NCBI GenBank assembly: GCA_024401365.1
Contig: JAKSLE010000009.1
Location: 61,818 to 125,817, forward strand
Source of the DNA: Bacteroidales bacterium
GTDB taxonomy: Bacteria > Bacteroidota > Bacteroidia > Bacteroidales > Marinilabiliaceae
Direction: 5' to 3'
DNA: 64,000 nucleotides
Shown here: one piece after another, positions 8,745 through 56,218 of the stretch
Numbering within the stretch: the first letter of the stretch is position 1
How the letters are laid out: each line of letters begins with the position of its first letter
Translations under genes and position numbers: made by a program
The notes under the pieces: model-generated
What the model saw: only the letters and a program-made list of their open reading frames with translations
What the model was told of the DNA's origin: nothing
Database searches by the model: none

Positions 8745-8888
8745 TGTATTTAATTATTTTACGGAAATTCCGATCATTACGGTTTCTTCATTGCTATTTA
8801 TGATTTGACCTATTTCACCAAACAAATGCTTTGCAAGAAAATTGACGTGATATGGAGGTGTTATAAATTGATCCATAATATTCATTTA

Positions 8889-9476: not shown

Positions 9477-9825
9477 ATCTTCTTGTTTGTATTTGATATT
9501 TTATTTGCTCAATCCCAACGATTGCGGGTGCAGAAAACTAATCCCACCAAAACGATGCAAATATTGGTATGCCTGACGATTGGACAGTCTAAAACGCTCA
9601 GAGAATGCCCCCACGCAAAGCACTACGTAATCTATTATGTCCTTATTAGCCTTTGTCATATACAGATGCTATCTACGCAAATATAAATATATTGGCAATA
9701 TACACCAAACAGCATTGTAATTATTTCAGGTTAAGAGGAAGAGAAGAGGGCGATAGGATTTTCGGGCATGAGTCGGGAGGGGAAGAGATAACTGCCGGGT
9801 ATGGGGATAGGTAAGGGATAGGTAA

Positions 9826-9867
9826 GGGCTATATAGAGAGAGCATACGAGTTGCTCGCAGTTTTTTT
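9826..9867 (+). repeat. Dispersed motif copy B (GGGCTATATAGAGAGAGCATACGAGTTGCTCGCAGTTTTTTT)
   Basis: Direct comparison with 8083-8122. Confidence 0.7.
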
Positions 9868-9885
9868 ATTTTGGAGGGATGTTGT

Positions 9886-9893
9886 TATCTTTG
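9886..9893 (+). promoter_or_regulatory. Candidate Bacteroidetes -7 box TATCTTTG
   Basis: Matches TAnnTTTG, 19 nt upstream of the ORF start at 9912. Confidence 0.35.
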
Positions 9894-9911
9894 TAGGCAA
9901 AAAAGAAGAAG

Positions 9912-10562
9912 ATGGGAAAGATGAGAGATATATTCTTGAAGATGACGGCATTTATCCGACAATATGTGGGGCATATTTGCTGGGCATTATTCTGTGTGAC
10001 GATTATGCAGCAATGTATGATATCGTCGTTAAGGAGTGAGTTGCTCAAGGCGAAAGCGGGAGAGATAGGCGACGTTTCGGGAGCGGTGGAGAGCTATGTT
10101 GATCCAGTGGTTACGGCAAACGATACAAACAATTCAAATATGGGGACAATACTAGTTGTTTTAGGAATATTAATTCTGTTGTCGTTAGCCATAGTCTATG
10201 TGCTATACAGGCTAGGCAAGATAAAGTTACCCTTTGTAGTTTCCGTCACAGGCAAGATGTGGCAAGACCTACAAGGCAGGGTAGTATACACGTTGACTGT
10301 GAAGAACAGCACCAGGAAGCAAGTAGAGATTTCGGATGCCATGGTAGAATTCATGGACACCAAGAAGAGGAGAAAGTTCAGGATGCCTGTTAAGGATTTA
10401 CCTATGACGTTACAAAAAGGGACCAGTCACAGCATGACGGTATCGCTTATGAACCTATTCATGAACAATCCAGACCTCAGAGCGATGAAAGCCCTGAGAG
10501 TACTTGTAAAGGTTGACGGCAAAGAGAAGCACACTTTACCGCAGCCATACAAAATGCAGTAG
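9912..10562 (+). CDS. Hypothetical membrane protein
   Basis: One clear hydrophobic helix (ILVVLGILILLSLAIVYVLY). No recognisable motif; start uncertain. Confidence 0.4.
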   Translation: MGKMRDIFLKMTAFIRQYVGHICWALFCVTIMQQCMISSLRSELLKAKAGEIGDVSGAVESYVDPVVTANDTNNSNMGTILVVLGILILLSLAIVYVLYRLGKIKLPFVVSVTGKMWQDLQGRVVYTLTVKNSTRKQVEISDAMVEFMDTKKRRKFRMPVKDLPMTLQKGTSHSMTVSLMNLFMNNPDLRAMKALRVLVKVDGKEKHTLPQPYKMQ

Positions 10563-25896: not shown

Positions 25897-26652
25897 ATGA
25901 CAACATCTGAATTGATTATCAATTACGCAAATCTGCATAATGGTTCCTTTTCTCGAAGAGAACTGATGCAAAAACTAGCAGGTAGAGAAACAGGCATTAG
26001 CGAACATACACTAAGCCTTCAGCTCAATCGGCTCGTTTCTTCGCGTCTGTTAAGCAGAACAAGCAGAGGGCAGTATTCTCTGCCAACAGGCAGTTTGCCA
26101 GAGTTTCTTTATGAGCCATCGGAATGGGAATGTAATGTGTACAGGACTTTAAAGATAGATTATCCTTTGTTGGATTTCTGCATCTGGAGTCCGAGGTTGT
26201 TAAGTTCGTTCATGCTTCATGTCCCCAACATTGGTTATACCTTCGTAGATGTAGAGAAAGTGGGGATGGAGAGTGTCTTTTACTCCTTGCAACAGATTAT
26301 TACTGATAGGAACGTGCTGCTAGCCCCGTCAGCCGATGATTGCAATCGATACCTGACAGGCAGCAATGCTATAGTCGTTAGACAGTTGATAGGTCAGTCT
26401 CCTTTGACGATGGTGAACAACTGTAATGTGCCGAGGATTGAGAAGGTTTTGGTTGATGCTATCGGAGATAATGAACTTTTGTTCGCTGGAGGATCGGAGA
26501 TCTATAATATCTTCGAATACGCCTTTGAGCGCAATCAGGTAAATCGAAGCAAACTTCTCAGATATGCATCGAGACGAAATCGAAAAGAACAGGTAGAACA
26601 TATTATAAGCGTCATAACTCAAGATGATAAGTCCAAAAAGCAGATCGATTGA
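25897..26652 (+). CDS. AbiEi-like antitoxin / transcriptional regulator (type IV TA)
   Basis: N-terminal wHTH-like segment (FSRRELMQKL...SRGQYSL). Overlaps the downstream AbiEii-like gene by 29 nt. Confidence 0.55.
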   Translation: MTTSELIINYANLHNGSFSRRELMQKLAGRETGISEHTLSLQLNRLVSSRLLSRTSRGQYSLPTGSLPEFLYEPSEWECNVYRTLKIDYPLLDFCIWSPRLLSSFMLHVPNIGYTFVDVEKVGMESVFYSLQQIITDRNVLLAPSADDCNRYLTGSNAIVVRQLIGQSPLTMVNNCNVPRIEKVLVDAIGDNELLFAGGSEIYNIFEYAFERNQVNRSKLLRYASRRNRKEQVEHIISVITQDDKSKKQID

Positions 26653-27700
26653 ATGGATAAAAGAATGTTCTGGTCGTATAGGGGTGCATGATATTGCCTT
26701 AGTTGAAAAAACAATAAGAGCATTCTCTTTGCTTGAAGCGTTGGCTCGTTCTGGGTGTCCTTTCCTGTTCAAGGGAGGCAGTTCGTTGATGCTACACTTA
26801 AATACAAGCCGACGCCTTAGTATCGATATAGATATAATTTGTCCTCCTGGGACAAAGATTGAGGAATATCTGTCGGTATATTCAGCGGAGTATGGATTTG
26901 GACAAGTGGAGTTAGTAGAACGTGTGTCCCGAACCGATATTCAGAAGCAACATGCCAAGTTTTACTACGAAGTGTCATATCCAGGCAATGGTGGTCGTGA
27001 TAAGATTCTACTAGATGTTCTTTTTGAAGAGATACATTATAAAAACGTTGAAACGCTGCAAATTGAAAGTCCGCTTCTGATTAATACGGGGTCTCCTGTT
27101 TTGGTAAGTCTCCCGAGCAAAGAAGACTTGCTTGGTGATAAATTGACAGCCTTCGCCCCGCATACTACAGGTATTCCCTATTTCAAGGGGGAGAAGAAAT
27201 GCACGATGGAGATTATCAAACAGCTCTTCGATATTGCTTCGCTTTTCGACTTGGTGCAAGACCTCACGATTACTCGGCAGACTTTCCAGAAATTTGCGAC
27301 TGTAGAGCTTCAGTACCGTCATCTTGACCATTTGGATTTGAAACAAGTTCTGGATGACATTTACAATACGTCTCTTTGTCTCTGTCTTCGTGGAGTTCAG
27401 GATAAAGAAGAATTTATGCTATTACAGGATGGCGTTTCGCGAATCGGCAATTTCATTCATAGTGAAAAATACAACATTGAGTCAGCTATTGTCAATGCGT
27501 CAAAAGTTGCATATCTCAGTAAACTGATTGAATACGGAATTGAAGAAGTCAAACACTTTGACAAATCCATGTTAGAATCTGTGATTTCTGAGACACTGCA
27601 ACTACCAATGCATACCAAACTGAATAAACTGAAGAAGACTCTTGGAGAGGCATTTTTTTACTGGCTGGAAATACAGAAGATTGTAAAAGGGTGCGGTTAA
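26624..27700 (+). CDS. Nucleotidyltransferase AbiEii/AbiGii-family toxin
   Basis: FKGGSSLMLHL...RLSIDIDI matches the KGGTAL...S.DLD nucleotidyltransferase signature of the family. Confidence 0.7.
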   Translation: MISPKSRSIEWIKECSGRIGVHDIALVEKTIRAFSLLEALARSGCPFLFKGGSSLMLHLNTSRRLSIDIDIICPPGTKIEEYLSVYSAEYGFGQVELVERVSRTDIQKQHAKFYYEVSYPGNGGRDKILLDVLFEEIHYKNVETLQIESPLLINTGSPVLVSLPSKEDLLGDKLTAFAPHTTGIPYFKGEKKCTMEIIKQLFDIASLFDLVQDLTITRQTFQKFATVELQYRHLDHLDLKQVLDDIYNTSLCLCLRGVQDKEEFMLLQDGVSRIGNFIHSEKYNIESAIVNASKVAYLSKLIEYGIEEVKHFDKSMLESVISETLQLPMHTKLNKLKKTLGEAFFYWLEIQKIVKGCG

Positions 27701-28461: not shown

Positions 28462-29529
28462 ATGCCGGTAAATAAGAATGCGATGACTCGTTATCAGGTA
28501 CTAGACGAGTTATTGTCGAACAGGTACCATGATTATACGATTGACGACATGACCAGTATAGTCAATGAGCGATTGAAAGAGATGGGTATTAGTCCTGTTA
28601 CTCGTCGTTGTATAGAGAAGGATATTCATTATCTAGAGTATGATGGGCCGTACATGGCTGAGATAGAGCGTAATGATATGCCGTATTACAATGCTGAGAA
28701 AGAGAAGACTGTAATAAGGAGATATTTGAAGTATTCCGATCCATCGTATTCGATATTCAAGAAAGAGATGTCGAGCGATGAGAAATACCTTCTATCGCAG
28801 GCATTAGACTTGCTAGGTCAATTTGACGGACTACCTACATTTGAGGCGTTGCAGCAATTCAAAGAAGGGTTGCGAGTAGGGGATCACAGGCAGATTGTGT
28901 CGTTCACCAAGAATCCGTTGGAGAACAGCAATCTGTTTGGCGAGTTGTTTATTGCCATTTCGCAAAAGCAAGTCATAAGAGTACATTATCATAAGTTTGG
29001 CGAAGAAGACGTTGATTTGACGGCAGACCTTCATCCCTATTTTCTAAAAGAATATAACAGGAGGTGGTATATTTTTGGGCAGTTGGTAGAAGAAGACATG
29101 ATGATATGCTTTGCGCTAGACAGGATGAACGGCTTTGATCCATTGCCCGGGAAGCAATACAAAGAATTTGAGGGCGATATAAACGACTGGTTTGAGGATA
29201 TCATAGGGGTAACGAGGTATCCGGGCAAGCCGGTAGAGCATATTGTGTTTTGGGTCAGTGACAAGTCGAAGAGTTATGTAGTCACGAAGCCGATACATGA
29301 GTCGCAGAAGATGTACAAGGGGGAGAAAGAAGCTGCGATGAGGAGTAGGTATCCGATGCTTGAGGGGGGAATGTTTTTTTCGATAGACTGTATGGAGAAT
29401 TATGAGTTGTACAGTGTGATGCTGTCGTTTGGTGCGGAGCTGGTGGTGCTGGAGCCGGTGGGGGTGAGAGATGAGTTGCGTAAGAGGGTAGAGAAGATGA
29501 TGGAGGTTTATGATGGAGTGCAAAGATAG
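28462..29529 (+). CDS. WYL-domain transcriptional regulator (HTH-WYL-WCX architecture)
   Basis: N-terminal MPVNKNAMTRYQVLDELL HTH-type start, central YNRRWYIFG WYL signature, 355 aa. Confidence 0.7.
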   Translation: MPVNKNAMTRYQVLDELLSNRYHDYTIDDMTSIVNERLKEMGISPVTRRCIEKDIHYLEYDGPYMAEIERNDMPYYNAEKEKTVIRRYLKYSDPSYSIFKKEMSSDEKYLLSQALDLLGQFDGLPTFEALQQFKEGLRVGDHRQIVSFTKNPLENSNLFGELFIAISQKQVIRVHYHKFGEEDVDLTADLHPYFLKEYNRRWYIFGQLVEEDMMICFALDRMNGFDPLPGKQYKEFEGDINDWFEDIIGVTRYPGKPVEHIVFWVSDKSKSYVVTKPIHESQKMYKGEKEAAMRSRYPMLEGGMFFSIDCMENYELYSVMLSFGAELVVLEPVGVRDELRKRVEKMMEVYDGVQR

Positions 29530-29573: not shown

Positions 29574-30290
29574 ATGGACAAATTTCAGAATACATATAGA
29601 ATACCATCAGCGCGTGCCGATTGGCATGGGTATGGTAAAGGCGTGTATTTCGTAACGATATGTACGCAGAATAGAGAACATTATTTTGGGGAAATTATGA
29701 GAGAATGTTATGGTGATGGTGTGAGATATAGGGGGATGCAAACGAAAATGACGGAACCGCAAATGCATTTGTCAGAAATCGGGCAATATGCCCAAGAACA
29801 ATTTATGAATGTTGAAGTACACTATCCGTATGCCAGAATACCATTGTTTGTTGTGATGCCAAATCATGTTCATGCGATTGTGATAATTGATGGAGATAAA
29901 TCCATTGAAAATGATATTCAAGAGTCGAATGGGCGTGCGAATGGAGACGGTGCGAGGCGTGGCGGTGTTGTGGGGTATGGAGACGTTGTGGGGTATGGAG
30001 ACGTTGTGGGGTATGGAGACGTTGCGCGCAACGTCTCTACAGTGAGGGATTGTCCATCGAAAAATTTGACAATGGCGGATATATCGCCTCAGAAAAAATC
30101 GTTGGCGGTGGTAATACGAGGTATAAAATCATCTATTACCAAATTTGCCAACCAAAACGATATACAATTTGCGTGGCAGTCGCGTTTTCATGACCGTATA
30201 GTGCGTGGTCGCTATGAATTGGAATGCATAGCGGACTATATAGAAAGCAACGTTGCCAATTGGCAAAACGATGATTTAAACAAATTGTAA
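29574..30290 (+). CDS. RAYT-like / IS200-family HUH (Y1) transposase
   Basis: HUH motif MPNHVHAIV and C-terminal catalytic-Tyr region RFHDRIVR...ADYIESNVANW. Confidence 0.7.
   Translation: MDKFQNTYRIPSARADWHGYGKGVYFVTICTQNREHYFGEIMRECYGDGVRYRGMQTKMTEPQMHLSEIGQYAQEQFMNVEVHYPYARIPLFVVMPNHVHAIVIIDGDKSIENDIQESNGRANGDGARRGGVVGYGDVVGYGDVVGYGDVARNVSTVRDCPSKNLTMADISPQKKSLAVVIRGIKSSITKFANQNDIQFAWQSRFHDRIVRGRYELECIADYIESNVANWQNDDLNKL
29967..30020 (+). repeat. Perfect 18-bp x3 tandem repeat inside the RAYT ORF
   Basis: GTTGTGGGGTATGGAGAC at 29967, 29985 and 30003; encodes (VVGYGD)x3. Confidence 0.9.
30016..30037. repeat. Perfect 22-bp palindrome GAGACGTTGCGCGCAACGTCTC
   Basis: Reverse complement verified by hand. 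Overlaps the last tandem unit. Confidence 0.9.
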
Positions 30291-30419
30291 ATTACTTATT
30301 AGATGGAGGTGATAAATGCGGACTGCTTTGGGGTATTGGAGAGGGGCTAGATATTATAGATGGGCTAGATGGTATTTTGGGGATGAAGGTTTATGGTGGG
30401 GTTAGTACGGAGCTAAGAG

Positions 30420-30508
30420 TTTTATGTGCCAGTTTGTATCTAATTTTGGGTACTTTTATGTGCCAATTTGTATCTAGTTTCTATTGATTTTATGTGCCAG
30501 TTTGTATA
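30420..30508 (+). repeat. Three direct repeats TTTTATGTGCCA(G/A)TTTGTAT(C)TA at an exact 34-bp period (iteron/operator-like)
   Basis: Copies start at 30420, 30454 and 30488. Confidence 0.85.
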
Positions 30509-30727
30509 GTATAAGAAAAACATATGTGGTGCGAAGATAGGGTTCGGAGAATGATTATATCTTTGTGATGTAAATATAAATATCGACACTTATGGTATAT
30601 CAATATTTTTATTGTCAAATGAATAAAATAGCCTTGAAGTGGAATGAAAAATTGAGTTAAATTGAAGAGATAATCAGTTTTCGGAGAGATTGTCTAATAA
30701 AAAAGGTATTATGTCGTTTATTCGTGT

Positions 30728-30735: not shown

Positions 30736-30777
30736 TAACAAATACAATATACATAACGAGTATATGCGTAATTGTTT

Positions 30778-31635
30778 ATGATACAGATAAATAGTACTAA
30801 ATATACATTCTCTGGACACGAGACTTTTCAGTGTAAGGGGCTATGGTTGAAGAAGGGATTTGATTTTGTAAAAGCCGAGAAATCTTTCAATGATGAATCT
30901 GCTGTTATTGAGTTAGGTGTGGGAAAGAATATGGTGTCCTCCATACGCTACTGGATGAAAGCGTTCTATATACTAGACTATGAGGGCAATATTACAGATA
31001 ATGGTGAATTTGTTTTTGGAGAAAAAGGGGTAGATCCTTTCCTGGAAGATGTAAACACACTGTGGTTATTGCATTATTGGCTAGTTTCTACTAGATATGC
31101 GACACTTTATTATGAGTTGTTCGCTAAGTATCACAAAGACAAACTAAACTTTACCAAGGAGAATGTCTTCAATTATATCAAACGCGAGTCGGATGATAAA
31201 AAGTTTAAGGGATTTTTGTTTAACGAAAACACTGTAAATAAAGATATAGCTACTCTATTGAAGATGTATGTAACTCCTGAAGGGAAAAATGTTGATGATT
31301 ACTCGGCACTTTTATTAGGGCTTAATCTCATAAAGAAAATTGAAAAGGATAAGTATGAGTTTAATACAAAGACAAGAGCAGATATTCATCCGCTAATTTT
31401 TTTGTACGCTATTATTGATGTTGCAGATGGAAGTCATGTGGTAGAGTACGACAGATTACTGTTTTTGTCTAGGGTTTTCTGTTTGACACAGTCAGAAATG
31501 ATTGATTTTTTTCAGAAGATTCATATGATATACCCTAATGTCAGCTATGATAATGCAGCTGGAGAGCAACTGTTTACTATTAACGAGGATTTGACTAAGT
31601 CTCAAGTCCTAGAGAAATATTACAGTCAGAAATAA
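30778..31635 (+). CDS. sspB: DUF4007-family protein, SspB-like (phosphorothioation nickase component)
   Basis: FSGHETFQCKGLWLKKGFDF N-terminal signature, about 285 aa, positioned before the ATPase and PAPS-reductase genes. The TTG at 30772 is an alternative start. Confidence 0.7.
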   Translation: MIQINSTKYTFSGHETFQCKGLWLKKGFDFVKAEKSFNDESAVIELGVGKNMVSSIRYWMKAFYILDYEGNITDNGEFVFGEKGVDPFLEDVNTLWLLHYWLVSTRYATLYYELFAKYHKDKLNFTKENVFNYIKRESDDKKFKGFLFNENTVNKDIATLLKMYVTPEGKNVDDYSALLLGLNLIKKIEKDKYEFNTKTRADIHPLIFLYAIIDVADGSHVVEYDRLLFLSRVFCLTQSEMIDFFQKIHMIYPNVSYDNAAGEQLFTINEDLTKSQVLEKYYSQK

Positions 31636-31640
31636 GTATT

Positions 31641-34600
31641 ATGAAGAAGTTTTCTACTTCCGTAAATATAGAACGAGATCAAAACAAGTCGCTTGATTAC
31701 ATTGTTACAGCCAATGCAAAACAGGCGATTGGGAAGATAGTCAATTCGTTCCAGGCAGGTATCCACTCATTCTGTCTTATTGGCTCTTATGGTACTGGTA
31801 AGTCTAGTTTCATAATAGCTCTTGAACAATGTTTGTCTGAGAAGAAGAGTAAGTCAAAGCAACTTATCAAGAATGAAGGTCAATTCAATGGGTTGACAGA
31901 TTTTGAATTTCTCAATATCGTAGGAGATTATTCTACGCTAGGGTCTTTACTGCAGGATAAACTTGATATTTCGTCTGAGAAGAATATTTTTTCAGCTTTA
32001 TCAAAGTTCTATGAGAAACTAGAAACGGCGAAAAAGTGCTTGGTAATTGTTGTTGATGAGTTCGGAAAAGTTTTGGAACATGCAGCTAAGAATGAGCCAG
32101 AAAAAGAAATGTACTTTTTACAGAAGTTCTGCGAGTTCGTGAACGATACGTCCAAGAATATACTCTTTATATCTACTCTACACCAAAGTTTCAATGCTTA
32201 TGCTAAAGATTTACAGCTAGAGCAAAAACAAGAATGGACAAAAGTCAAAGGTCGTATTCAAGATATAGTATTCAAGGAACCTGTTGAGCAATTGCTCAAT
32301 TTAGCGGCTAGCAAAATATCTGGGCAAAGTGACACCTGTATAAATACAGCAGAGAGCCTGTATGACCTTGCTCTATCAAAAAAGTTCGTATCACCTTCGT
32401 TGGATAAAAAGGTAGTAGCTTCATTGTATCCTATGGATGTATTGGCAGCTACGATACTAACTCTAGCCAACCAAAGATACGGACAGAATGAGCGAACTCT
32501 TTTCACTTTTCTAGAATCACAGGGAGAAGATTCGTTAAGTGATTTTATTGTTAATGGGAATAGACTATATAATATTGCAATAGTCCACGACTATATTACA
32601 TACAATTTCCACACTGTACTGAGCGAGGCTAATCAAGACTCTGCTAATTGGACAGCGATTCGTGTAGCTATTGAGCGAGTTGAAGGATTGAACTTACCTA
32701 CAGAGACTATCAACGTGGCAATAGCGTTAGTAAAGGTTATAGGACTTCTCAATATATTCGCAACCTCTTCTGCTAGTATTGATAATCAATTGCTGGACAC
32801 CTATGGTAAACTAGCGATGGATATTGACAATGTTAAGGAAGTGTTGAGACAGTTAGAGCAGTTCAAGATTGTAAGATTTGCGAAATATAAGAATAGATAT
32901 ATTCTCTTTGAAGGGACGGATATCAACATAGAGGAAGGTCTGTACAAAGCTTCTGTTGAATGTAAAAGGACTGAAGATATTGTCGACAAACTTAAGTCAA
33001 ACTTTAGCTTCAAACTTTCTTTAGCGAATGCTCATTACTACGAGACCGGAACTGCTCGTTTCTTCGAGTATAGCATATCCAGCACTCCTATTATAAAAAT
33101 AAACGTGGGAGAAATTGATGGATGTGTGAATCTTTTGTTCGCTCCCAAAGATGACTATGAAGCGGTCAAGACGCAATGTTTATCGCAGCACGATATCCCG
33201 GTTATATACTGCTTATTCAGGAATGTAGCTAAAGTTAGTGACCACATATTTGAGATGGATAAACTTGAATATGTACGAGACTATTATATAGCAGATGAGC
33301 ACGACAAAGTAGCAATGAGGGAGATTGAAAATCTTCTGAATTACGAGAAGACGCTGCTCAATAGAGAGGTGTATGATAGCCTATACACAAACAATGTAGA
33401 GTGGATTTTTAATGGGTTGATTATTGAAGGGATTAGTAGCGCTAAGTACTTTACTAAGTTTTTGTCAAAAGTTTGCAGTACAGTATATAGCAAGACTCCA
33501 ATATTCAAAAATGAGCTCATAAATAAGCATAAGCCGAGTGGTACAATTTCCTTCGCTAGACAGAACTATTTGCAAGCATTGCTGGATAATAGCGAAAAGG
33601 AAGACTTAGGGTTCGATAAGGATAAATTTCCTCCAGAGAAAGCAATATATCATACTCTTTTGAAGAACACAGGTATACATGCTATTGATGGTGCTTTATA
33701 TTCTCTCAATCCACCTACTGAGTCTTCTTTTAAGATTCTCTGGGATGCGTGTGAAGACTTTTTGATTTCGGCGAAAACAAGACAACGGAAAGTTGGAGAG
33801 TTGTATAAGATTCTCTCTGAACCTCCATATGGACTTAAACAGGGCTTGATAGATTGCTGGGTGCCATCATTCTTAGTTATTAGAAAGGATGATTTTGCAC
33901 TATATACTGGCAATCAATATGTACCTCAAATAAACAAAGAGGTTCTTGATTTATTGTTCAAGAACCCAAATGCCTTCTCCATCAAAACATTTGATGTGAC
34001 AGGTGTTAAGCAAAAGTTCTTTGACAAATATAGAGAAGCCATAAATCTCAAAGAAACGAGTTTGAATACAGATTCGTTTATTGAGACCATCAAACCTTTC
34101 TTGACTTTCTATCGTCAATTAAATGACTATGCAAAGACAACTAAGGATATTACTCCAAATGCAATTAAATTCCGTGACATAATATCAAAGGCAACTGACC
34201 CAGAAGAGACATTTTTTGAGACTCTTCCTGAGCAGCTAGGATTCAAGGAGGTTGTAATATCGCAGAATCCAGATGCTATAGATAGTTTCGTGTCAGTTTT
34301 GCACGATGCAATTAGAGATATCAGAAGTTGTTATGGAGAGTATTTGAAATATGTTGAGAAGAGTCTTCTTGAAATCCTTAGTATAGATTCTACAGACTAT
34401 GCAGAATACAAGCCTATCATTGACAAAAGATACAAGGCTGTTAAATCTGAGTATATGCCAGATGATATCAAGAATTTTTATTCTCGTCTTACAAGCAAAT
34501 TTGCGGATAAGAAAACTTGGCTGGAGTCGGTCTGCTTTGCCATATTAAAGAAGCCACTTGAAAAAATTAAGGATTCTGAAAAGGCTTACTTGCGCACAGC

Positions 34601-34847
34601 TATACAAGATAAGTTATATCAATTAGATGACTATGTAGAAATGCATAAGTCCTCTGAAGAAGAAATTGTGCGCTTGCATATTACACAGAACAATGCACAG
34701 CCGAAGACGAAACAAGTAGTCATTCCAAAGGCAAAACAGAAAGATGTAGAAAAACTAGCGAATAATATAGAAGAGTTATTGTCTAGTGATTCTTCTGTGA
34801 ATATAGCTGCTCTAATTAGATTGATAAATAAGTTTGATGGCAAATAA
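31641..34847 (+). CDS. sspC: Large P-loop ATPase, SspC-like
   Basis: Walker A GSYGTGKSS and Walker B LVIVVDEFGK; 1068 aa; operon position. Confidence 0.6.
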   Translation: MKKFSTSVNIERDQNKSLDYIVTANAKQAIGKIVNSFQAGIHSFCLIGSYGTGKSSFIIALEQCLSEKKSKSKQLIKNEGQFNGLTDFEFLNIVGDYSTLGSLLQDKLDISSEKNIFSALSKFYEKLETAKKCLVIVVDEFGKVLEHAAKNEPEKEMYFLQKFCEFVNDTSKNILFISTLHQSFNAYAKDLQLEQKQEWTKVKGRIQDIVFKEPVEQLLNLAASKISGQSDTCINTAESLYDLALSKKFVSPSLDKKVVASLYPMDVLAATILTLANQRYGQNERTLFTFLESQGEDSLSDFIVNGNRLYNIAIVHDYITYNFHTVLSEANQDSANWTAIRVAIERVEGLNLPTETINVAIALVKVIGLLNIFATSSASIDNQLLDTYGKLAMDIDNVKEVLRQLEQFKIVRFAKYKNRYILFEGTDINIEEGLYKASVECKRTEDIVDKLKSNFSFKLSLANAHYYETGTARFFEYSISSTPIIKINVGEIDGCVNLLFAPKDDYEAVKTQCLSQHDIPVIYCLFRNVAKVSDHIFEMDKLEYVRDYYIADEHDKVAMREIENLLNYEKTLLNREVYDSLYTNNVEWIFNGLIIEGISSAKYFTKFLSKVCSTVYSKTPIFKNELINKHKPSGTISFARQNYLQALLDNSEKEDLGFDKDKFPPEKAIYHTLLKNTGIHAIDGALYSLNPPTESSFKILWDACEDFLISAKTRQRKVGELYKILSEPPYGLKQGLIDCWVPSFLVIRKDDFALYTGNQYVPQINKEVLDLLFKNPNAFSIKTFDVTGVKQKFFDKYREAINLKETSLNTDSFIETIKPFLTFYRQLNDYAKTTKDITPNAIKFRDIISKATDPEETFFETLPEQLGFKEVVISQNPDAIDSFVSVLHDAIRDIRSCYGEYLKYVEKSLLEILSIDSTDYAEYKPIIDKRYKAVKSEYMPDDIKNFYSRLTSKFADKKTWLESVCFAILKKPLEKIKDSEKAYLRTAIQDKLYQLDDYVEMHKSSEEEIVRLHITQNNAQPKTKQVVIPKAKQKDVEKLANNIEELLSSDSSVNIAALIRLINKFDGK

Positions 34848-35946
34848 GATAAGACATTTACTAGGTATCTCAGGAGGCAAGGACAGCGCTGCCCTTGCTA
34901 TCTATCTCAAGGATAAATATCCAGACCTTGGGATAGAGTTCTATACTTGTGATACTAAATGCGAGTTGGCAGAAACAGAACAGCTTGTCAATAACCTGCG
35001 CTCTTATCTAGGCAACATAAAGACATTGTGCGCTGCACAAGGAAGTCCAGAGCCTACACCGTTTGACCATTTTTTGAAGATATATGGTGGTTACCTCCCC
35101 TCAGTACAATCTCGTTGGTGTACTAACAAGATGAAGTTATCAGAGTTTGAGAAATACGTAGGTGATGAACCTGTCATTTCATACGTAGGCATTAGAGGTG
35201 ATGAGGATAGAGAGGGATATGTATCGACAAAGCCTAATATACAGTCAATATTTCCTTTCAGAAAGAACATCTGGAGTATTGACGTGGTAAATGAAGTTCT
35301 CAAAGATGCTAGTATAGAAAAGTTCACAGAGTGCTATAGAGAAGTAGCTTCAGATGAGGATTTTGCAGAAGCAGAGAAGTTTTTGCAGGCAAAGCTTACA
35401 AAAACATTCTTCTATACCAAGAAGTTGAATTCTCTCCTTGATGTCAATGTAAAGACATTCAATCATGCGGTGTTCTCATATCTCAAGAAGTATACACAAC
35501 TACCTGTGAGCAAACTTGATGAATTTCCATTAGTAGATAATGATGAAATATTAGTCAAAGCAGATATTTTCCGAATTCTAGAAGAGTCCGGTGTAGGTGT
35601 TCCTGCGTACTATAATCTTATTGACTTTGAGGTAGATGGCAAAAAGGGGCAGTACTGTCGCAGCCGCTCTGGTTGCTATTTCTGCTTCTTTCAACAAAAG
35701 ATAGAGTGGATATGGCTATATGAGCAACATCCTGATCTCTTTGCTAAGGCAATGGAGTATGAGAAGGATGGCTATACATGGATAGAAAGTGAGCGTTTGG
35801 AAGACTTAATTCAACCAGAACGCATTCGCCAGATAAAGCTAGACCAAATTAAGAAAGCTGAAGATGCCGCAAAGAAGTCAAAGAGCACCTTGCTCATTGA
35901 TATGTTTGAGGATGATGATATTAACTGTGCTAATTGTTTTATATAA
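34837..35946 (+). CDS. sspD: PAPS-reductase/PP-loop ATP pyrophosphatase, SspD/DndC-like
   Basis: PP-loop LGISGGKDSAA and C-terminal Cys clusters CRSRSGCYFC and CANC. Overlaps the upstream gene by 11 nt. Confidence 0.75.
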   Translation: MANKIRHLLGISGGKDSAALAIYLKDKYPDLGIEFYTCDTKCELAETEQLVNNLRSYLGNIKTLCAAQGSPEPTPFDHFLKIYGGYLPSVQSRWCTNKMKLSEFEKYVGDEPVISYVGIRGDEDREGYVSTKPNIQSIFPFRKNIWSIDVVNEVLKDASIEKFTECYREVASDEDFAEAEKFLQAKLTKTFFYTKKLNSLLDVNVKTFNHAVFSYLKKYTQLPVSKLDEFPLVDNDEILVKADIFRILEESGVGVPAYYNLIDFEVDGKKGQYCRSRSGCYFCFFQQKIEWIWLYEQHPDLFAKAMEYEKDGYTWIESERLEDLIQPERIRQIKLDQIKKAEDAAKKSKSTLLIDMFEDDDINCANCFI

Positions 35947-36509
35947 TGACGGTACCTGCATTTCTTCAGTATGAGGCAGATAAGGACTATATAGTTCAAT
36001 TTTATCTTCCTTCTGGAAATTATAGGTTGCAAGATGGGACGTCGTATGTTTCCTATAATATACATAGCCCTATTTTAGAGGAAAGGCATTGGTCAAAGGA
36101 AATAAAATATATGAACCCGGAAAATACAGAAGTATCAAATGAAATTAAGCAGATTCCTAATAAATCTGGCGGGTTGTATGTTTTTTATCTCAAAGGCTCT
36201 GGCCTCCCTTTTATGGAAAGATATATTTTGTATATAGGTAGGGTGCAATATACAAAAGGTATGAACATTAGGAAGAGGGCTTTGGAATATTACAAAGAGT
36301 ATAAGAAAAATAAAAATTCTAGATTGGGAATAAGGTATATGTTTGAGCACTGGAGTAAGCATTTGTATTATAGATATTATACAGATGTTGACAATCCTAG
36401 TATTGTCGCTTTAGAAGAGTCATTAATAAAAACATTATTGCCTCCATTTAATACAGATATACCAAATAAACAGAAACCTAAAACAAATGTAGCGGCTTTT
36501 AAACTATGA
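35946..36509 (+). CDS. Small GIY-YIG-like putative nuclease
   Basis: GLYVFY...(17 aa)...YIGR...RKRALEYY...LEESLIKTLLPPFN gives the ordered GIY / YIG / R / E / N pattern. The start ATG shares one nt with the sspD stop (TAATG). Confidence 0.45.
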   Translation: MTVPAFLQYEADKDYIVQFYLPSGNYRLQDGTSYVSYNIHSPILEERHWSKEIKYMNPENTEVSNEIKQIPNKSGGLYVFYLKGSGLPFMERYILYIGRVQYTKGMNIRKRALEYYKEYKKNKNSRLGIRYMFEHWSKHLYYRYYTDVDNPSIVALEESLIKTLLPPFNTDIPNKQKPKTNVAAFKL

Positions 36510-37783
36510 CTAATAAATCCTTTATAGTTCCTGCAATGAAGGGGACTGTCGGAAATAATACATATTATGTTACAAATCTTACTTTTGAACAAATAAGTTC
36601 TCATGTTGGAAATGTAAATAAAGAGGTGTTTTCTCACGAGTCATTAAATGACCTTCTACAACGGTCGTTAACTAACAACTATTTAAGAATTAGAGATTAT
36701 ATACTTAACCAAGAAGAGCATTTTTTTAATGGGATAGTATTGGCCGTATATAATGATTATCCCCAATGGACAGAAATAGATCTTGAGATACACGGTAATG
36801 AATACCACAATGTTGGTTTATTGACGTTCGCGGGGGATGAAATAATATTCCCAGTGGATGGGCAACATAGGGTAAAAGGAATAAAGGCAGCTTTGGAGAA
36901 GAATCCTGATTTAAGTTCTGAAACCATAAGTGTGTTATTCATTGGGCACATTAATACAGTGGAAGGTAAAAAACGGACAAGGCGAATATTCTCTACGCTA
37001 AACCGATATGCTAAACCTGTTCAAAAAGGAGACATTATATGCTTAGATGAAGATGATGTAGTCGCAATAGCAACCCGTGAATTACTGGAGTCATACGAAT
37101 TGTTTTCAGGGTCGAAGATGAAAGCTAGTAATAGCAAATCTTTGCAGAAAAATGATTTTTCGTCATTTACTTCCTTAATTACTCTCTATGAAGTACATTT
37201 TGAACTTTTTAAAAGTTTCTTTTATCAAAAAAAAGGCAAACCTGTCAATGCGAGTTTTGTGAAAAAATACTTGAAACAAAGACCGGATGATGACATTACA
37301 AATGATTTCATTAATTATTTAAAAGTATTTTGGTCATACATGGTACAAGTATTTAGCTGCTTGAGTTTATATGAAATAGATACTAATGAAGATGCAGCAA
37401 AACCATATAGATCAAATACTACTGGTGGAAATTTATTGTTTAGACCGGCTGGATTATTGTCATTTGCAAAAGCAATTGTGAGAGTGCTGACGTGTAGTTC
37501 AAATAAATTGTCCTTGCAATGTTTGCTAGAAAAGGCTAATTCTATTCCTTTGGATCTGTCGCAACGTCCCTGGGTTAATATATTATGGAATCCTATAAAG
37601 TGTAGTATGATTACGACTAATAACAAGTTGGTAGAATCATTGTTCATATGGTTCTTAGCCTCCCCCGTTTTGTCTAAAAAAGAAATTGAAACGATGATAA
37701 AGGATTATGCTACTGTTTTTTCAATAAGGATTGAAGATGCTAAAACTCAAATAGAAGAATTTGCTAACCAAAATAGAGAATAA
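36506..37783 (+). CDS. DGQHR-domain protein (DndB-like)
   Basis: FPVDGQHRVKGI and FSTLNRYAKPV motifs. ATGA start/stop overlap with the upstream gene. Confidence 0.7.
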   Translation: MTNKSFIVPAMKGTVGNNTYYVTNLTFEQISSHVGNVNKEVFSHESLNDLLQRSLTNNYLRIRDYILNQEEHFFNGIVLAVYNDYPQWTEIDLEIHGNEYHNVGLLTFAGDEIIFPVDGQHRVKGIKAALEKNPDLSSETISVLFIGHINTVEGKKRTRRIFSTLNRYAKPVQKGDIICLDEDDVVAIATRELLESYELFSGSKMKASNSKSLQKNDFSSFTSLITLYEVHFELFKSFFYQKKGKPVNASFVKKYLKQRPDDDITNDFINYLKVFWSYMVQVFSCLSLYEIDTNEDAAKPYRSNTTGGNLLFRPAGLLSFAKAIVRVLTCSSNKLSLQCLLEKANSIPLDLSQRPWVNILWNPIKCSMITTNNKLVESLFIWFLASPVLSKKEIETMIKDYATVFSIRIEDAKTQIEEFANQNRE

Positions 37784-37786
37784 ATT

Positions 37787-40060
37787 ATGCTTAACGTAGA
37801 AACATCATTCCTTACAGAAAATCGCAGTGTGTACGATTTTCTTAACCAGCCTGGTCAGGGATTGTATATTCCTTTGTATCAGCGTGATTATAGTTGGGAT
37901 TCAGATAATATAGAGCAGTTGCTTGAGGATATATCTAGAGGTATACAGAGAATCGCCAATGGCGAAGTAACTGATGATAATAAGGAGATACGTTTCCTTG
38001 GAACGATTATTACTGTTATCGAAAATAATCGCCAGAATATATATCCTGTGGACCCGCAGGCTGTACCTTCTAAGATTGAAAAGATTATTGATGGACAACA
38101 GCGTGTTTCTACTATTACGTTAATGTCAACTATTCTTCTAAAACGATTGCTAGACATCAAAGCAAGAGTAAAGGAGAATAACCCTTTGCATAATGAAATA
38201 TGTGAGATTTGTGATATTTGGGATGCTAAGTTAAAACCTCTTTTCTGCTTTGACTTGCAGCGAGGAACGCCTAAATTAAAGCCAAAGGTAATACGAGGAG
38301 CCATTGATTATTGGACTCGAGATAGAGGTGTTGACGAAGCCTATAAGTCTCCATTGTCAAACTACTTGGGGAATTTCATTAAAGCATATTGTGATGGTAC
38401 GGCTCTTCCAATAGTACCCAAGCAGAGCGAGGGGAATAACTTGCTACATAAAAATGCCAAACAGATTAAAAACTGGCTTGAGAATGATGTAGCAAAAGCT
38501 CATATTAACGATAATGATGATAATTTCTCAAGAGCAGAAATGATTCTTGAACATCTATCTCAAGATATGATTTGGGAGTATGATAGGCCAGAGTTGGTGG
38601 ATATCATAAGACAAGCAGACTTTAGTTCAAATAAAAAAGATTCATATATTCTCAGTGAGCTAGTTCAGACAATTGCAGTTTGTCACTATCTCTTGGACCG
38701 TTGCTGTTTTACAATAATTCAACCAACGGATGACGATTGGGCATTCGATATGTTCCAGTCATTGAATGCGACTGGAACACCATTGACTGCTATAGAGACA
38801 TTTAAGCCTACTGTTGTTAATACAACAGATAATGAGCCCGGATACCAATTCAAGGATTCTGAGTGTGAGAAGTATTTCAAAAAAGTTGAGGATTTCTTAT
38901 CGAAGGCACCAAATGCTCAACAAAAGAATAAATGGACGAATGATTTCTTGACCTCTTTCTTTGTCGCATATGATGGTAGAACCATGTCTACTCATTTTAG
39001 CTATCAAAGGAAGGCTCTTGATGCGGCGTACAATGAGCTTCCTTCATTTGCCCAGAAAGAGCAGTTCGTTAAGACATTTGGCAACTATGCAGAATTCTAC
39101 TCTACGTGGATGAGCTATACAGGAGTTGATGGCGCACTGTTCCCTAGAATCGTTGGACTTGATGCTGATATCGCTTCGATGATTATTCTAATGCTCAAGG
39201 AGTCTAATCATAAGATGGCTATCACAGTACTAGGAAAGATGTATGAGCCTGTTATTAATGGCGAATTGCAAGCTGTTGATAGATTTGTGCACTCAGTCAA
39301 GTTGATAGGTTCTTATTTCTTCTTATGGAGGTCAGCTTGGCCCAATTCAGGATTGGATACTTCTTACCGTGAGTTTTTTAAATATCTAAAGAACAATGGC
39401 AAGTCAGTTGATATTTATGAAATTAAACGATTCATAAAGGAGTCTCTTGCTAAGAAAGGTATTACTGATTATGCTTCATGGAGATCTTTGGCATTATCAT
39501 ATTTGAGATATGCTAATGCGAATAATACTATTGTTCGTTTGGCTTTGTTAGCAGCAGCTCATGATACACAACCAGACAATGGTTCAATAAAAGAGGGTAG
39601 AGACGGCATATCTCCATATTTGACACTTGAGAAATGGATATCCCCAGATCTAAGAACTATAGAGCATATTTCGCCGCAGTCCAATGTTAATGACAAGTGG
39701 GATACATCGTTATATACAGATGCCAAAGAGTATCAAACGCTCGGTAATCTCACGCTTTTGCCACAGGATATTAATTCGTCCGCTGGCAATCGCGGATGGG
39801 AAGAAAAACAGTTATACTATGAGTGTGTTTCTCAGACAGATTCTTTAGTTATTGATAGTATTAGAAATAGAGCTTTGGCAAAGGGGTTCTCTCTTAATGA
39901 ACAAACACTTGAGTTACTAAAGAATTGTCGGTACAATAAGCACATAGATTCCATTGCGAAGAAACCTGATTCAATAGCGTGGGATTCGGCTCTTGTGAGC
40001 AGAAGAACAGAAGACATTCTGTCTATAGCATGGAAGCGTCTTTCTTTTGCTTTGGACTAG
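37787..40060 (+). CDS. DUF262 (N-terminal) + DUF1524/HNH-like (C-terminal) protein, SspE-like effector
   Basis: LYQRDYSW, IIDGQQRVSTITL and FQSLNATGTPLT (DUF262); TIEHISPQS...LGNLTLLPQDINSSAGN (DUF1524). Confidence 0.75.
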   Translation: MLNVETSFLTENRSVYDFLNQPGQGLYIPLYQRDYSWDSDNIEQLLEDISRGIQRIANGEVTDDNKEIRFLGTIITVIENNRQNIYPVDPQAVPSKIEKIIDGQQRVSTITLMSTILLKRLLDIKARVKENNPLHNEICEICDIWDAKLKPLFCFDLQRGTPKLKPKVIRGAIDYWTRDRGVDEAYKSPLSNYLGNFIKAYCDGTALPIVPKQSEGNNLLHKNAKQIKNWLENDVAKAHINDNDDNFSRAEMILEHLSQDMIWEYDRPELVDIIRQADFSSNKKDSYILSELVQTIAVCHYLLDRCCFTIIQPTDDDWAFDMFQSLNATGTPLTAIETFKPTVVNTTDNEPGYQFKDSECEKYFKKVEDFLSKAPNAQQKNKWTNDFLTSFFVAYDGRTMSTHFSYQRKALDAAYNELPSFAQKEQFVKTFGNYAEFYSTWMSYTGVDGALFPRIVGLDADIASMIILMLKESNHKMAITVLGKMYEPVINGELQAVDRFVHSVKLIGSYFFLWRSAWPNSGLDTSYREFFKYLKNNGKSVDIYEIKRFIKESLAKKGITDYASWRSLALSYLRYANANNTIVRLALLAAAHDTQPDNGSIKEGRDGISPYLTLEKWISPDLRTIEHISPQSNVNDKWDTSLYTDAKEYQTLGNLTLLPQDINSSAGNRGWEEKQLYYECVSQTDSLVIDSIRNRALAKGFSLNEQTLELLKNCRYNKHIDSIAKKPDSIAWDSALVSRRTEDILSIAWKRLSFALD

Positions 40061-40069
40061 TTGATGAAT

Positions 40070-40097
40070 AAGGGCGCGTTTAGCGTGCTCTTATTTT
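40070..40097 (+). terminator. Intrinsic terminator of the ssp-like operon
   Basis: 9-bp stem AAGGGCGCG/CGTGCTCTT (two G-U pairs), loop TTTAG, then ATTTT. Confidence 0.5.
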
Positions 40098-52565: not shown

Positions 52566-52629
52566 TTGAAAATCTCAAGTAGCGGTTTGGAATTTCATTG
52601 AAAATCTCAAGTAGCGGTTTGGAATTTCA
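52566..52629 (+). repeat. Perfect 32-bp tandem duplication (TTGAAAATCTCAAGTAGCGGTTTGGAATTTCA x2)
   Basis: Copies at 52566-52597 and 52598-52629, verified base by base. Confidence 0.9.
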
Positions 52630-52678
52630 AGAATATGCATGTATATTTGCTGAGTATAAAACACTAATACAAAGCAGT

Positions 52679-53821
52679 ATGTACAAGCGTATTTATAAGA
52701 TAGAAGATGAGCCAGAAGAGAGTTTGTTTCTATTTGGTGCACGTCAGACAGGGAAAACTACTCTTTTGAAAGAAAGATTTCCCAAAGCAATCTACATCGA
52801 CTTGCTCAATACAGATATTTTGAAACGTCTTCAAAATAACCCTGAACGTCTGCGACAGACATTGGAACACGAAAAACAAGATACGATTGTAGTAATAGAT
52901 GAAATACAGCAACTGCCTATATTGCTGAACGAAGTACATTGGCTTATAACAAATAAAGGTCTTAGATTTATACTAAGCGGGTCGAGTGCGCGAAAACTTA
53001 AAAGAAACGGCACTAACACCTTAGGTGGCCGAGCGTTGCCATGCAATATGTATCCGCTTGTGAGTGCTGAGATAGAGGATTTTGACCTGAACAGGGCATT
53101 GCGATATGGCATGATACCGAAAATATACACGTCAAAAGCGCCCGAAAGATTACTCCAAGCATACGTAGATGTATACTTGAAAGAAGAGATTAAGGCAGAA
53201 GCCCTGGTAAGAAACCTTGCAAATTTTACCAAGTTTCTTGAAATATCAGCATTGACAGATGGCGAGATCGTCAACTACCAAAATATAGCATCTGATTGTG
53301 GGGTAAGTTCGACAACCGTAAAGGAATATTTTGCGATACTAAGTGACACTCTTATTGGCTACATGATACCAGCATATACCCAAACACAGAAACGCAAAAT
53401 GGTTCAGGCACCACGTTTTTACTTTTTTGATATCGGAGTAACAAATTACCTGCTAAACAGGACAAAGCTGGAACACGGATCGCCAGAATATGGTCACGCA
53501 TTTGAGCATTTTGTCATACAGGAGATAATAGCATATATAGGCTATACACATAGCAACAAAGCGCTAAGTTACTGGCGCACGTACACAGGGCAAGAAGTAG
53601 ATGTAATACTTGGAGACGCAGATGTGGCAATCGAGATTAAGTCAACCGACAATATAGAAACACGACACTTAAAGGGAATAAAAGCCTTCAGAGAGGATTT
53701 CCCTCAAAGTCGACTGATGGTTGTATCGTTAGACCCATTCGACAGAAGGACAGAAATGGGAATAGAGATAACAAACATCCACAAATTTCTGAAAATGCTT
53801 TGGGGTGGGGAGATAGTGTGA
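52679..53821 (+). CDS. AAA-type ATPase with DUF4143-like C-terminus
   Basis: Walker A GARQTGKTT and Walker B VVIDEIQ. Start placed at the ATG at 52679. Confidence 0.7.
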   Translation: MYKRIYKIEDEPEESLFLFGARQTGKTTLLKERFPKAIYIDLLNTDILKRLQNNPERLRQTLEHEKQDTIVVIDEIQQLPILLNEVHWLITNKGLRFILSGSSARKLKRNGTNTLGGRALPCNMYPLVSAEIEDFDLNRALRYGMIPKIYTSKAPERLLQAYVDVYLKEEIKAEALVRNLANFTKFLEISALTDGEIVNYQNIASDCGVSSTTVKEYFAILSDTLIGYMIPAYTQTQKRKMVQAPRFYFFDIGVTNYLLNRTKLEHGSPEYGHAFEHFVIQEIIAYIGYTHSNKALSYWRTYTGQEVDVILGDADVAIEIKSTDNIETRHLKGIKAFREDFPQSRLMVVSLDPFDRRTEMGIEITNIHKFLKMLWGGEIV

Positions 53822-54932: not shown

Positions 54933-54940
54933 TATCTTTG
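54933..54940 (+). promoter_or_regulatory. Candidate -7 box TATCTTTG
   Basis: Matches TAnnTTTG, 19 nt upstream of the ATG at 54959. Confidence 0.4.
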
Positions 54941-54958
54941 TGGCAAAACACAAATGCC

Positions 54959-56218
54959 ATGGACATAGAATTAATCAAAAAAATCATAGTAACCAACAGA
55001 AATTCAGTGCGTAACATTCGTTTGGTGAAACGCGATTTCTATTTCGATGATTCATTGAACTATGTTCTTGTAGGTGTGCGTCAGGCTGGAAAGTCGTACC
55101 TCCTTTATCAGAAGATTCAGGATATGCTTTTAGAAGGTACTGATATCAATAGTATAGTGTACATCAATTTTGACGATGAGCGCCTAGCCGAGATTACTAC
55201 CCAGGATTTGGATTCCATAATCGATGCCCACTATCAGATGACCGATAATAGGCCTGTTCTCTTTCTCGATGAGATTCAGAATGTGCCATATTGGGAGAAG
55301 TTTGCCCGCAGACTGGCCAATGAGAAATACCGTGTATATATCACTGGAAGCAATGCCAATATGCTCAGTAGCGAGGTAGCGACAACTTTGGGCGGAAGGT
55401 ATATGCAGAAGTATGTATATCCATATACATTCCCGGAATATCTCAATGCTATCGATTTCAAGTTTGTAGATAGCTGGCAATATGATTCCGATTTTCTTAA
55501 CAAGCTGAAACGAGAGTTCAGGGAGTATTTCTATTTTGGAGGATTCCCCGAGTCTGTGGTGACACGCTTAAAGAGGGAATGGTTGTCAGGATTGTTTCAG
55601 AAGATATTTTTGGGCGATATCATCTCACGTTATCACATCAAGAATGAAGATGTGCTTAAGATTCTGCTAAAGAAACTTGCGGAGAGCACCATGCAGCCTA
55701 CATCGTATTCCAGACTTGCCAACCTTATAGTCTCCACCGGTCGCAAGATGCAAACCAGCACCGTTATCGACTATCTGAAATATGCCGAGGATTCGTGGCT
55801 GATATTCTCCGTTCAGAATTTCGGAGCAAAGATTACCGAGCGCGAGAGCGCCAAAAAATACTATTTCCGTGACAATGGCATTCTGAACCTCTTTCTTTTC
55901 GATCCAGAACCCGCTTTGCTGGAAAATCTTGTGGCTGTTCATTTGAAGCGTCTATATAACGACGACCTTTATTTCTATCGCCAGAACATCGAGGTAGATT
56001 TCTATCTGCCTGAAGCAGGGAAACTCATTCAAGTATCCTACAACATGCAAGACGAAAAGACTCTCAATCGAGAGACAGCCTCTTTGATAAAAGCTGCAGA
56101 TTTCCTTAAAGTATCAGACCTCATTATCATCACCTACGACGACAAGGAGCAATTTCTTGAAGTAAAAGGCCACACAATAAGAATTGTCCCATATTGGAAA
56201 TTTGCGCTAGAGGGATGA
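54959..56218 (+). CDS. AAA-type ATPase with DUF4143-like C-terminus (paralog of 52679-53821)
   Basis: Walker A GVRQAGKS and Walker B LFLDEIQ. Confidence 0.7.
   Translation: MDIELIKKIIVTNRNSVRNIRLVKRDFYFDDSLNYVLVGVRQAGKSYLLYQKIQDMLLEGTDINSIVYINFDDERLAEITTQDLDSIIDAHYQMTDNRPVLFLDEIQNVPYWEKFARRLANEKYRVYITGSNANMLSSEVATTLGGRYMQKYVYPYTFPEYLNAIDFKFVDSWQYDSDFLNKLKREFREYFYFGGFPESVVTRLKREWLSGLFQKIFLGDIISRYHIKNEDVLKILLKKLAESTMQPTSYSRLANLIVSTGRKMQTSTVIDYLKYAEDSWLIFSVQNFGAKITERESAKKYYFRDNGILNLFLFDPEPALLENLVAVHLKRLYNDDLYFYRQNIEVDFYLPEAGKLIQVSYNMQDEKTLNRETASLIKAADFLKVSDLIIITYDDKEQFLEVKGHTIRIVPYWKFALEG

Follow-up and report, generated by a model that had tools for sequence, protein, structure and literature searches.

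A GIY-YIG nuclease gene and a DndB-like DGQHR gene as an apparently undescribed accessory pair in an Ssp phosphorothioation operon of a Bacteroidales bacterium

Characterised SspBCD writers make single-strand phosphorothioate (PT) modifications such as CpsCA with sulfur from a cysteine desulfurase, and SspE is the PT-sensing effector, in which PT stimulates the ParB-like NTPase domain and the HNH domain nicks invading DNA. Herein, we analysed a 64-kb stretch of DNA (hereafter, the window) from a Bacteroidales metagenome-assembled genome (contig JAKSLE010000009.1), in which six forward-strand genes at 30772-40060 constitute the locus under study. In comparison with the SspABCD-SspE systems of Vibrio cyclitrophicus FF75, Escherichia coli 3234/A and Streptomyces yokosukanensis (Xiong et al., 2020), the genes for SspB, SspC, SspD and SspE keep their order and share one strand, but the operon in the window, which belongs to a Bacteroidales host, has genes for a GIY-YIG nuclease (gene 4) and a DGQHR protein (gene 5) inserted between sspD and sspE. 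The locus apparently consists of an ordinary SspBCD-SspE system together with a broadly conserved accessory pair that has apparently not been described.

The six open reading frames (ORFs) encode 287 (285 from the ATG), 1068, 370 (369), 191 (187), 425 and 757 aa. When the ATG starts of genes 1 (30778), 3 (34837) and 4 (35946) were used, the junctions were +5, -11, -1 (TAATG), -4 (ATGA) and +3 nt, exactly as given in the original prediction, which had been made from the letters of the DNA alone and whose motifs were each located in the gene to which they had been ascribed. Position 30772 itself is an in-frame TTG two codons 5' of the ATG of gene 1. Gene 1 (sspB, 30772-31635, forward strand) matched Pfam DUF4007 over the full-length profile (2.4e-73), PADLOC SspB (4.3e-83) and the solved SspB structure 6JUF (E = 5.9e-19), and carries the motif FSGHETFQCKGLWLKKGFDF at aa 13. 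Gene 2 (sspC, 31641-34847, forward strand), encoding a large ATPase with Walker A GSYGTGKSS at aa 48 and Walker B VIVVDEFGK at aa 135, was aligned with positions 2-1038 of the 1039 in the PADLOC SspC profile (1173 bits, E = 0), the match to BrxC being weaker (7e-69). Gene 3 (sspD, 34837-35946, forward strand), which overlaps gene 2 by 11 nt, encodes a PP-loop ATP pyrophosphatase with SGGKDS at aa 13 and the C-terminal cysteine clusters CRSRSGCYFC and CANC, and was recognised by PADLOC SspD (4.4e-86; DndC, 1e-3) and weakly by PAPS-reductase-like and MnmA families of NCBIfam. Gene 6 (sspE, 37787-40060, forward strand) combines a DUF262/GmrSD_N ParB-like NTPase domain (Pfam 7e-27) with a DUF1524/GmrSD_C HNH-type nuclease domain (9e-11); it matched PADLOC SspE over the full length (7.4e-277), was aligned end to end with the solved SspE structures 6JIV (E = 5e-83) and 20YV (7e-92), and contains QRDYSW at aa 32, DGQQR at aa 102, EHISPQS at aa 626 and GNLTLLP at aa 653.

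Judged by these sequence matches, genes 1, 2, 3 and 6 are SspB, SspC, SspD and SspE, and the SspE of the window is an ordinary one. The proposal of an Ssp-family phosphorothioation defence locus was thus upheld by the PADLOC, Pfam and PDB matches of these four genes. The families named in advance for the writer genes were recovered for DUF4007, SspC and, through PADLOC, SspD, while gene 3 gave no Pfam match at E <= 0.01, PAPS_reduct included, which counts against its assignment.

The absence of a linked sspA, also foreseen, was confirmed in the 64-kb window, where a locus-linked SspA used as tblastn query reached no better than E = 0.52 and no ORF of 320-460 aa was recognised as a cysteine desulfurase by Pfam. 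An IscS-type enzyme encoded elsewhere must therefore be the sulfur donor, a mode of supply documented for other Ssp systems (PMC8092258; PMC12914056). E. coli 3234/A resembles the window in this respect, its locus likewise lacking sspA and IscS being the presumed substitute (Xiong et al., 2020). PT has been measured as CpsC in gut Bacteroidales that possess sspBCD, whether or not sspE is present (PMC12914056); these are different organisms from the host of the window.

Gene 4 (35946-36509, forward strand, 187 aa) gave no match in direct scans of Pfam, PADLOC and NCBIfam, and word-indexed homologue searches yielded one relative and, in a second such search, nine. An exhaustive HMMER profile search revealed a family that falls into 249 clusters at 50% identity, most of them of 165-190 aa, and among 60 members scanned against Pfam, PF20815 (GIY_YIG_2) was detected in 40 and PF01541 (GIY-YIG) in 20. 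The top PDB match of the family profile was the GIY-YIG domain of UvrC (1YD6, E = 9.4e-5), and the residues G76, Y78, Y96, G98, R111, Y115, E157 and N169 were invariant or nearly so in the 60-member alignment. For an AlphaFold2 (AF2) model with a mean predicted local distance difference test score (pLDDT) of 84.4, Foldseek ranked GIY-YIG domains of UvrC in the first five places (probability 1.00, template modelling score on the target 0.68-0.74) and Hpy188I next. The GIY-YIG identity, which had been proposed from the order of the motifs, was well supported by these family, profile and structural matches, and on the sequence and the model gene 4 is taken to encode a divergent GIY-YIG (URI) nuclease whose predicted catalytic set is intact.

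The nuclease domain of gene 4, at about aa 75-170, shares its fold with that of Thermotoga UvrC, and Y78, Y96, R111, Y115, E157 and N169 correspond to Y19, Y29, R39, Y43, E76 and N88 of UvrC, the last four pairs being given also by the profile alignment. Unlike UvrC and GIY-YIG restriction enzymes such as Hpy188I, to which its identity is about 16%, gene 4 encodes a stand-alone protein of 187 aa, with a conserved N-terminal extension of about 70 aa (WSxEIxY motif) and an obligate DGQHR-protein partner as features of its own.

Gene 5 (36506-37783, forward strand, 425 aa), which overlaps gene 4 by 4 nt (ATGA), matched Pfam DndB at 3e-28 (99.3 bits against a cutoff of 29.1) and passed the TIGR03187 DGQHR model (105.8 bits against 58.85). 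The motif VDGQHR is located at aa 117, and the QR, DGQHR and FxxxN motifs were invariant across 38 relatives (Q52, R53, D118-R122, F162 and N166), these motifs having been defined as QR, DGQxR and FxxxN in the work that recognised the SspE N-terminal and DGQHR domains as homologous (PMC4619093). In the AF2 model (pLDDT 85), the full-length query had as its best Foldseek match the ParB-N structure 5K5D at a marginal probability of 0.90, and the helical C-terminal half found no Foldseek match among solved structures. A TFIIE-beta winged helix considered for residues 233-306 was set aside, the phmmer match (E = 0.064) being too weak to use. From its sequence and predicted fold, gene 5 is considered to encode a DGQHR/DndB-like protein of the ParB/Srx superfamily.

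With DndB of Salmonella enterica Cerro 87 (He et al., 2015; PMC4507180), gene 5 shares the DGQHR domain, the ParB-like fold and the setting in a PT operon, and relatives of gene 5 are the sole DndB-like gene in two Dnd-type loci (L040 and L056). The protein is, however, about 60 residues longer than DndB, with the helical C-terminal half as an extra part, and scores below the cutoff of the DndB equivalog model. Moreover, whereas DndB is encoded before the writer genes in dndBCDE, gene 5 follows them and is always preceded by its GIY-YIG partner, which is absent from canonical dndBCDE.

To define the contexts of genes 4 and 5, 63 loci were assembled from the surroundings of gene 5 relatives and from scans of species-representative genomes and of metagenomes, the latter with gene 4 relatives of the greatest divergence as queries; the counts of adjacency and of writers refer to the 54 that were non-redundant. 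The two genes were directly adjacent in 48, the others comprising two ORF-calling artefacts, three pairs cut by contig ends and a single exception (L055), which holds only an 81-aa fragment of gene 4. Junction lengths in the first 36 loci lay between -23 and +17 nt, and the divergences of the two genes were tightly correlated (r = 0.89). The pair was never fused in the 150 relatives of gene 4 and 120 of gene 5 that were inspected. The neighbouring writer was SspBCD in 30 loci, DndC-DndD(-DndE) with DndA in 8, and BrxP-BrxC-PglZ-BrxL, that is, bacteriophage exclusion (BREX) type 4, in 6; in one of the last, an operon encoding BrxP, a sulfur-binding-domain protein, BrxC, PglZ and BrxL contains the one close gene 4 relative, again with a DGQHR gene after it. 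The remaining 10 loci had no writer in view, eight of them being contigs of less than 3 kb and the others L053, which is cut inside gene 5, and L055. The Ssp label given to L032 by the automatic tally is unconfirmed, since PADLOC recognised only an SspA/DndA desulfurase there.

As for the effectors, PbeABCD was present in 23 loci (PbeA E = 0), with hosts including Tannerella forsythia ATCC 43037 (L030), Alloprevotella tannerae ATCC 51259 and Hoylesella pleuritidis JCM 14110, and SspE accompanied the pair in 2 of the 54, namely the window and L016. In L054, true SspF (9e-213), SspG (1e-179) and SspH (E = 0, 2125 bits) are followed directly by the pair. A trio of 534, 369 and 283 aa occupies the effector position in L005, and further loci had no recognised effector. 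With SspE in so few loci and PbeABCD, SspFGH, arms of unassigned identity, BREX type 4 or Dnd genes in the others, the pair travels with the writers and not with SspE, and the comparison of genomes shows it to be a portable unit that adjoins writers of the Ssp, Dnd and BREX type 4 classes regardless of the effector.

These results also bear on the idea, contained in the original prediction, that genes 4-6 form an expanded three-gene effector arm, which was raised there together with the possibility that they are orthologues of SspFGH. Close translational coupling among genes 4, 5 and 6 (-4 and +3 nt) and an identical six-gene order in one other genome (L016) would fit a single dedicated restriction arm co-evolved with SspE. 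SspFGH is, like genes 4-6, a module of three genes 3' of sspBCD, and its presence is compatible with that of sspE (Wang et al., 2021; PMC8092258). However, genes 4 and 5 gave no match to the PADLOC SspF, SspG and SspH models, which did detect SspFGH in L054, where a separate pair is also present, and no homology links genes 4-6 to SspF (about 600 aa, with a Walker A motif), SspG (about 500 aa) or the FtsK-like SspH (about 1750 aa). In addition, SspE is found in just 2 of the 54 pair loci, and whereas the SspE proteins of the window and L016 are 63% identical, genes 4 and 5 of the window are only 47% and about 46% identical to those of L016, no closer than to those of Pbe-type loci. Neither form of the three-gene arm was therefore borne out, and we consider both highly improbable.

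Several side observations were made on the surveyed loci. In L005 (11466-15021) and L006, SspBCD and the pair are followed by the trio, which had no PADLOC match and a faint BrxC_BrxD Pfam match and which may be an undescribed PT-linked effector arm. The BREX type 4 locus L001 has a 145-aa ScoMcrA-type sulfur-binding-domain protein at 2269-2706 between BrxP and BrxC, and L021 an unannotated 145-aa ORF in the same position. A gene for a 376-aa YhcG/DUF1016-type nuclease lies between sspC and sspD at about 7242-8372 in L007 and L008 (L024 being the same contig as L008), and unannotated ORFs of 390 and 379 aa lie between sspC and sspD in L010 and L017. The SspBCD-pair-PbeABCD loci of Prevotellaceae (L002-L004) are flanked by genes for a TraG/type IV secretion system coupling protein, a topoisomerase and DUF3945/DUF4099 proteins, which suggests carriage on an integrative conjugative element, and in L003 sspB is split by an insertion sequence element with a DDE transposase. 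Directly upstream of the pair in the Dnd-type L040, a gene at 8366-9919 encodes a fusion of DndE with a HerA/FtsK-like ATPase (Pfam DndE, 1.6e-5; AAA_10, DUF87 and HerA_C).

The location of the pair relative to the modification genes bears on its role. It usually lies 3' of the last writer gene, follows DndD or DndE in L056 and L040, and in L033 and L035 is found between SspC and the cysteine desulfurase. Because the pair adjoins or sits inside the modification genes independently of the effector type, and because the tested function of DndB is to limit PT, we favour, with moderate confidence, the reading that the pair is a portable writer-linked accessory module acting on the writer side as a counterpart of DndB, and not part of the SspE restriction arm. 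DndB has been shown experimentally to be a non-essential negative regulator of the PT level (PMC4507180). The locus is taken to be a horizontally acquired Ssp PT defence operon in which, by homology to characterised systems, SspBCD would write PT and SspE would sense PT and nick foreign DNA. The proteins of genes 4 and 5 would form a complex on the writer side, where gene 5, like DndB, may bind DNA in a nucleotide-dependent manner and determine the sites or the level of PT writing, and gene 4 may supply a nick.

Several observations weigh against the writer-side module. Gene 5 failed the TIGR03233 DndB equivalog model (65.2 bits against a cutoff of 328), and five loci (L020, L022, L027, L031 and L032) have the pair after PbeD and at a distance from the writer genes. 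A Mantel analysis of co-evolution did not separate the writers from the effectors, the partial r of the pair being 0.74 with the former and 0.62 with the latter, both significant. Many loci already possess a dedicated regulator (a WYL candidate in the window, HTH_3 or HTH_26 elsewhere), and canonical Ssp systems write PT without genes 4 and 5, according to the literature. Furthermore, transcriptional repression of the Salmonella DndB type leaves an obligate, catalytically intact nuclease partner unexplained.

The last of these points is met more easily if the pair is an extra PT-dependent restriction effector, that is, a split analogue of SspE/GmrSD with gene 5 as the NTPase sensor and gene 4 as the GIY-YIG nuclease, which we regard as a possible yet less probable explanation. 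The pair might then stack with SspE, SspFGH or PbeABCD as layered defence, and might be the sole nuclease in some Dnd-type loci. Conservation of all the GIY-YIG catalytic residues throughout the family, down to about 25% identity, is in line with this role, and so is the awkwardness of a repressor with an obligate nuclease partner; the SspE N-terminal and DGQHR domains, with their common QR, DGQxR and FxxxN motifs, are homologous (PMC4619093), and PT effectors are known to act additively when combined (PMC8092258). Compared with GmrSD, BrxU and SspE, in which a ParB-like DUF262 NTPase is fused to HNH, genes 5 and 4 share the combination of a ParB/Srx NTPase with an endonuclease but are split into two polypeptides, with a GIY-YIG nuclease in place of HNH and the nuclease gene first. 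No other recognised effector was present within the available sequence of the Dnd-type loci L038, L040 and L056 and of L057. In addition, Rakesh et al. proposed that restriction is carried out by the nucleases of modification neighbourhoods, with DndB as a possible NTPase or nuclease co-effector (PMC10853773), the same work raising both PT control and a co-effector role for DndB. In contrast, Ssp and BREX loci with enough flanking sequence almost always carry another effector, so that the pair is rarely alone; in L033 and L035 it is embedded among the modification genes; and its two genes are never fused among the 150 and 120 relatives inspected. PT-level control is, moreover, the sole experimentally supported function of DndB (PMC4507180).

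A broader version that spans both roles, and which we likewise hold tentatively, is that the pair is an unrecognised, widespread unit that PT systems of the Ssp, Dnd and BREX type 4 classes have in common. A ParB-like nucleotide switch would read the DNA or its PT status and direct the nuclease, and the unit would serve either as a governor that restricts PT to a fraction of consensus sites or, in all of these systems, as a reserve restriction nuclease.

It was further considered whether gene 4 could be a selfish homing endonuclease, or the pair a toxin-antitoxin-like cassette, inserted by chance and having no PT role. GIY-YIG homing endonucleases are mobile, and the position of the pair within operons varies, both of which speak for such an origin. 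However, the strict adjacency of gene 4 to the DGQHR gene and to PT writers holds for three classes of writer and in several phyla, with identities of only 25-50%, the DNA-binding extension that homing endonucleases typically have is missing from gene 4, and neither the 50,697 phage nor the 72,556 plasmid records searched with tblastn yielded a relative of gene 4, blastn with the DNA of the pair likewise giving no match in the plasmid records. On account of the strict linkage to PT writers, both identities were rejected, and a selfish origin is regarded as very unlikely.

The G+C content of the locus (33-38%, against 42-48% in the flanks) sets it apart from its surroundings. The Ssp operon sits in a defence island, 3' of an AbiEi/AbiEii pair (25897-27700; PADLOC 5e-65 and 2e-127), a WYL+WCX regulator of the BrxR/CapW type just upstream (28462-29529) and a forward-strand ORF of 238 aa (29574-30290) that resembles transposases associated with repetitive extragenic palindromes (REP-associated tyrosine transposases; NCBIfam E = 2.6e-13, below the cutoff) and carries a GDVVGY x3 insert as an interruption. 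Directly 3' of this ORF, at 30334-30521, tandem direct repeats consist of two 18-bp and three 34-bp copies. The latter (30420-30521, forward strand; core TTTTATGTGCCARTTTGTAT; 3 matches against 0.03 expected by chance) lie 250-350 nt 5' of sspB and could be an operator of the Ssp operon or a REP-like array. Although considered as a DndB-type operator, they were left unassigned, the triple repeat being absent from the 36 related loci examined (L001-L036) and adjoining the REP-transposase-like ORF.

On the 3' side of sspE, the hairpin that had been predicted to end the operon is present at 40066-40096 (forward strand) with 14 pairs, an RNA folding energy of -19 kcal/mol and z = -2.75 relative to shuffled sequences, although its U-run is short and lies partly within the stem, for which reason a consensus terminator scan did not list this terminator-like element. 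A GH2 beta-galactosidase gene follows on the opposite strand, and neither tRNA genes nor Rfam families were found in or near the island. Elsewhere in the window, two paralogous genes for AAA_14 + DUF4143 ATPases (52598-53821 and 54938-56218) lie less than 3 kb apart.

In the literature, no description of the pair was found in open-access full text, figures and large supplements lying outside the reach of the search. URI/GIY-YIG enzymes are listed among the nucleases of Dnd neighbourhoods, the pairing of gene 4 with gene 5 not being described (PMC10853773), and the pair is unmentioned in the text of a BREX survey (PMC12839542) and of a survey of PT in the gut (PMC12914056). The latter mentions a 7-gene brx operon of Bacteroides salyersiae (DSM 18765), which served to validate PT synthesis by BREX type 4 and may include the pair. 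The BREX type 4 locus L001 also has seven genes, equal to the number reported for that operon.

Defence-system annotators would label the present locus as SspBCDE with a stray DndB and miss gene 4. PT occurs at only about 10-15% of consensus sites, and how self and non-self are still distinguished is unexplained (PMC8092258; PMC12914056), and no brake on PT writing is known other than DndB, whose mechanism is disputed (PMC10853773). Cultured hosts of the pair exist in T. forsythia ATCC 43037, A. tannerae ATCC 51259 and H. pleuritidis JCM 14110, and a DndB-like protein that is obligately coupled to a predicted intact nuclease, and that follows all three writer classes checked, would provide a genetically tractable handle on partial PT modification.

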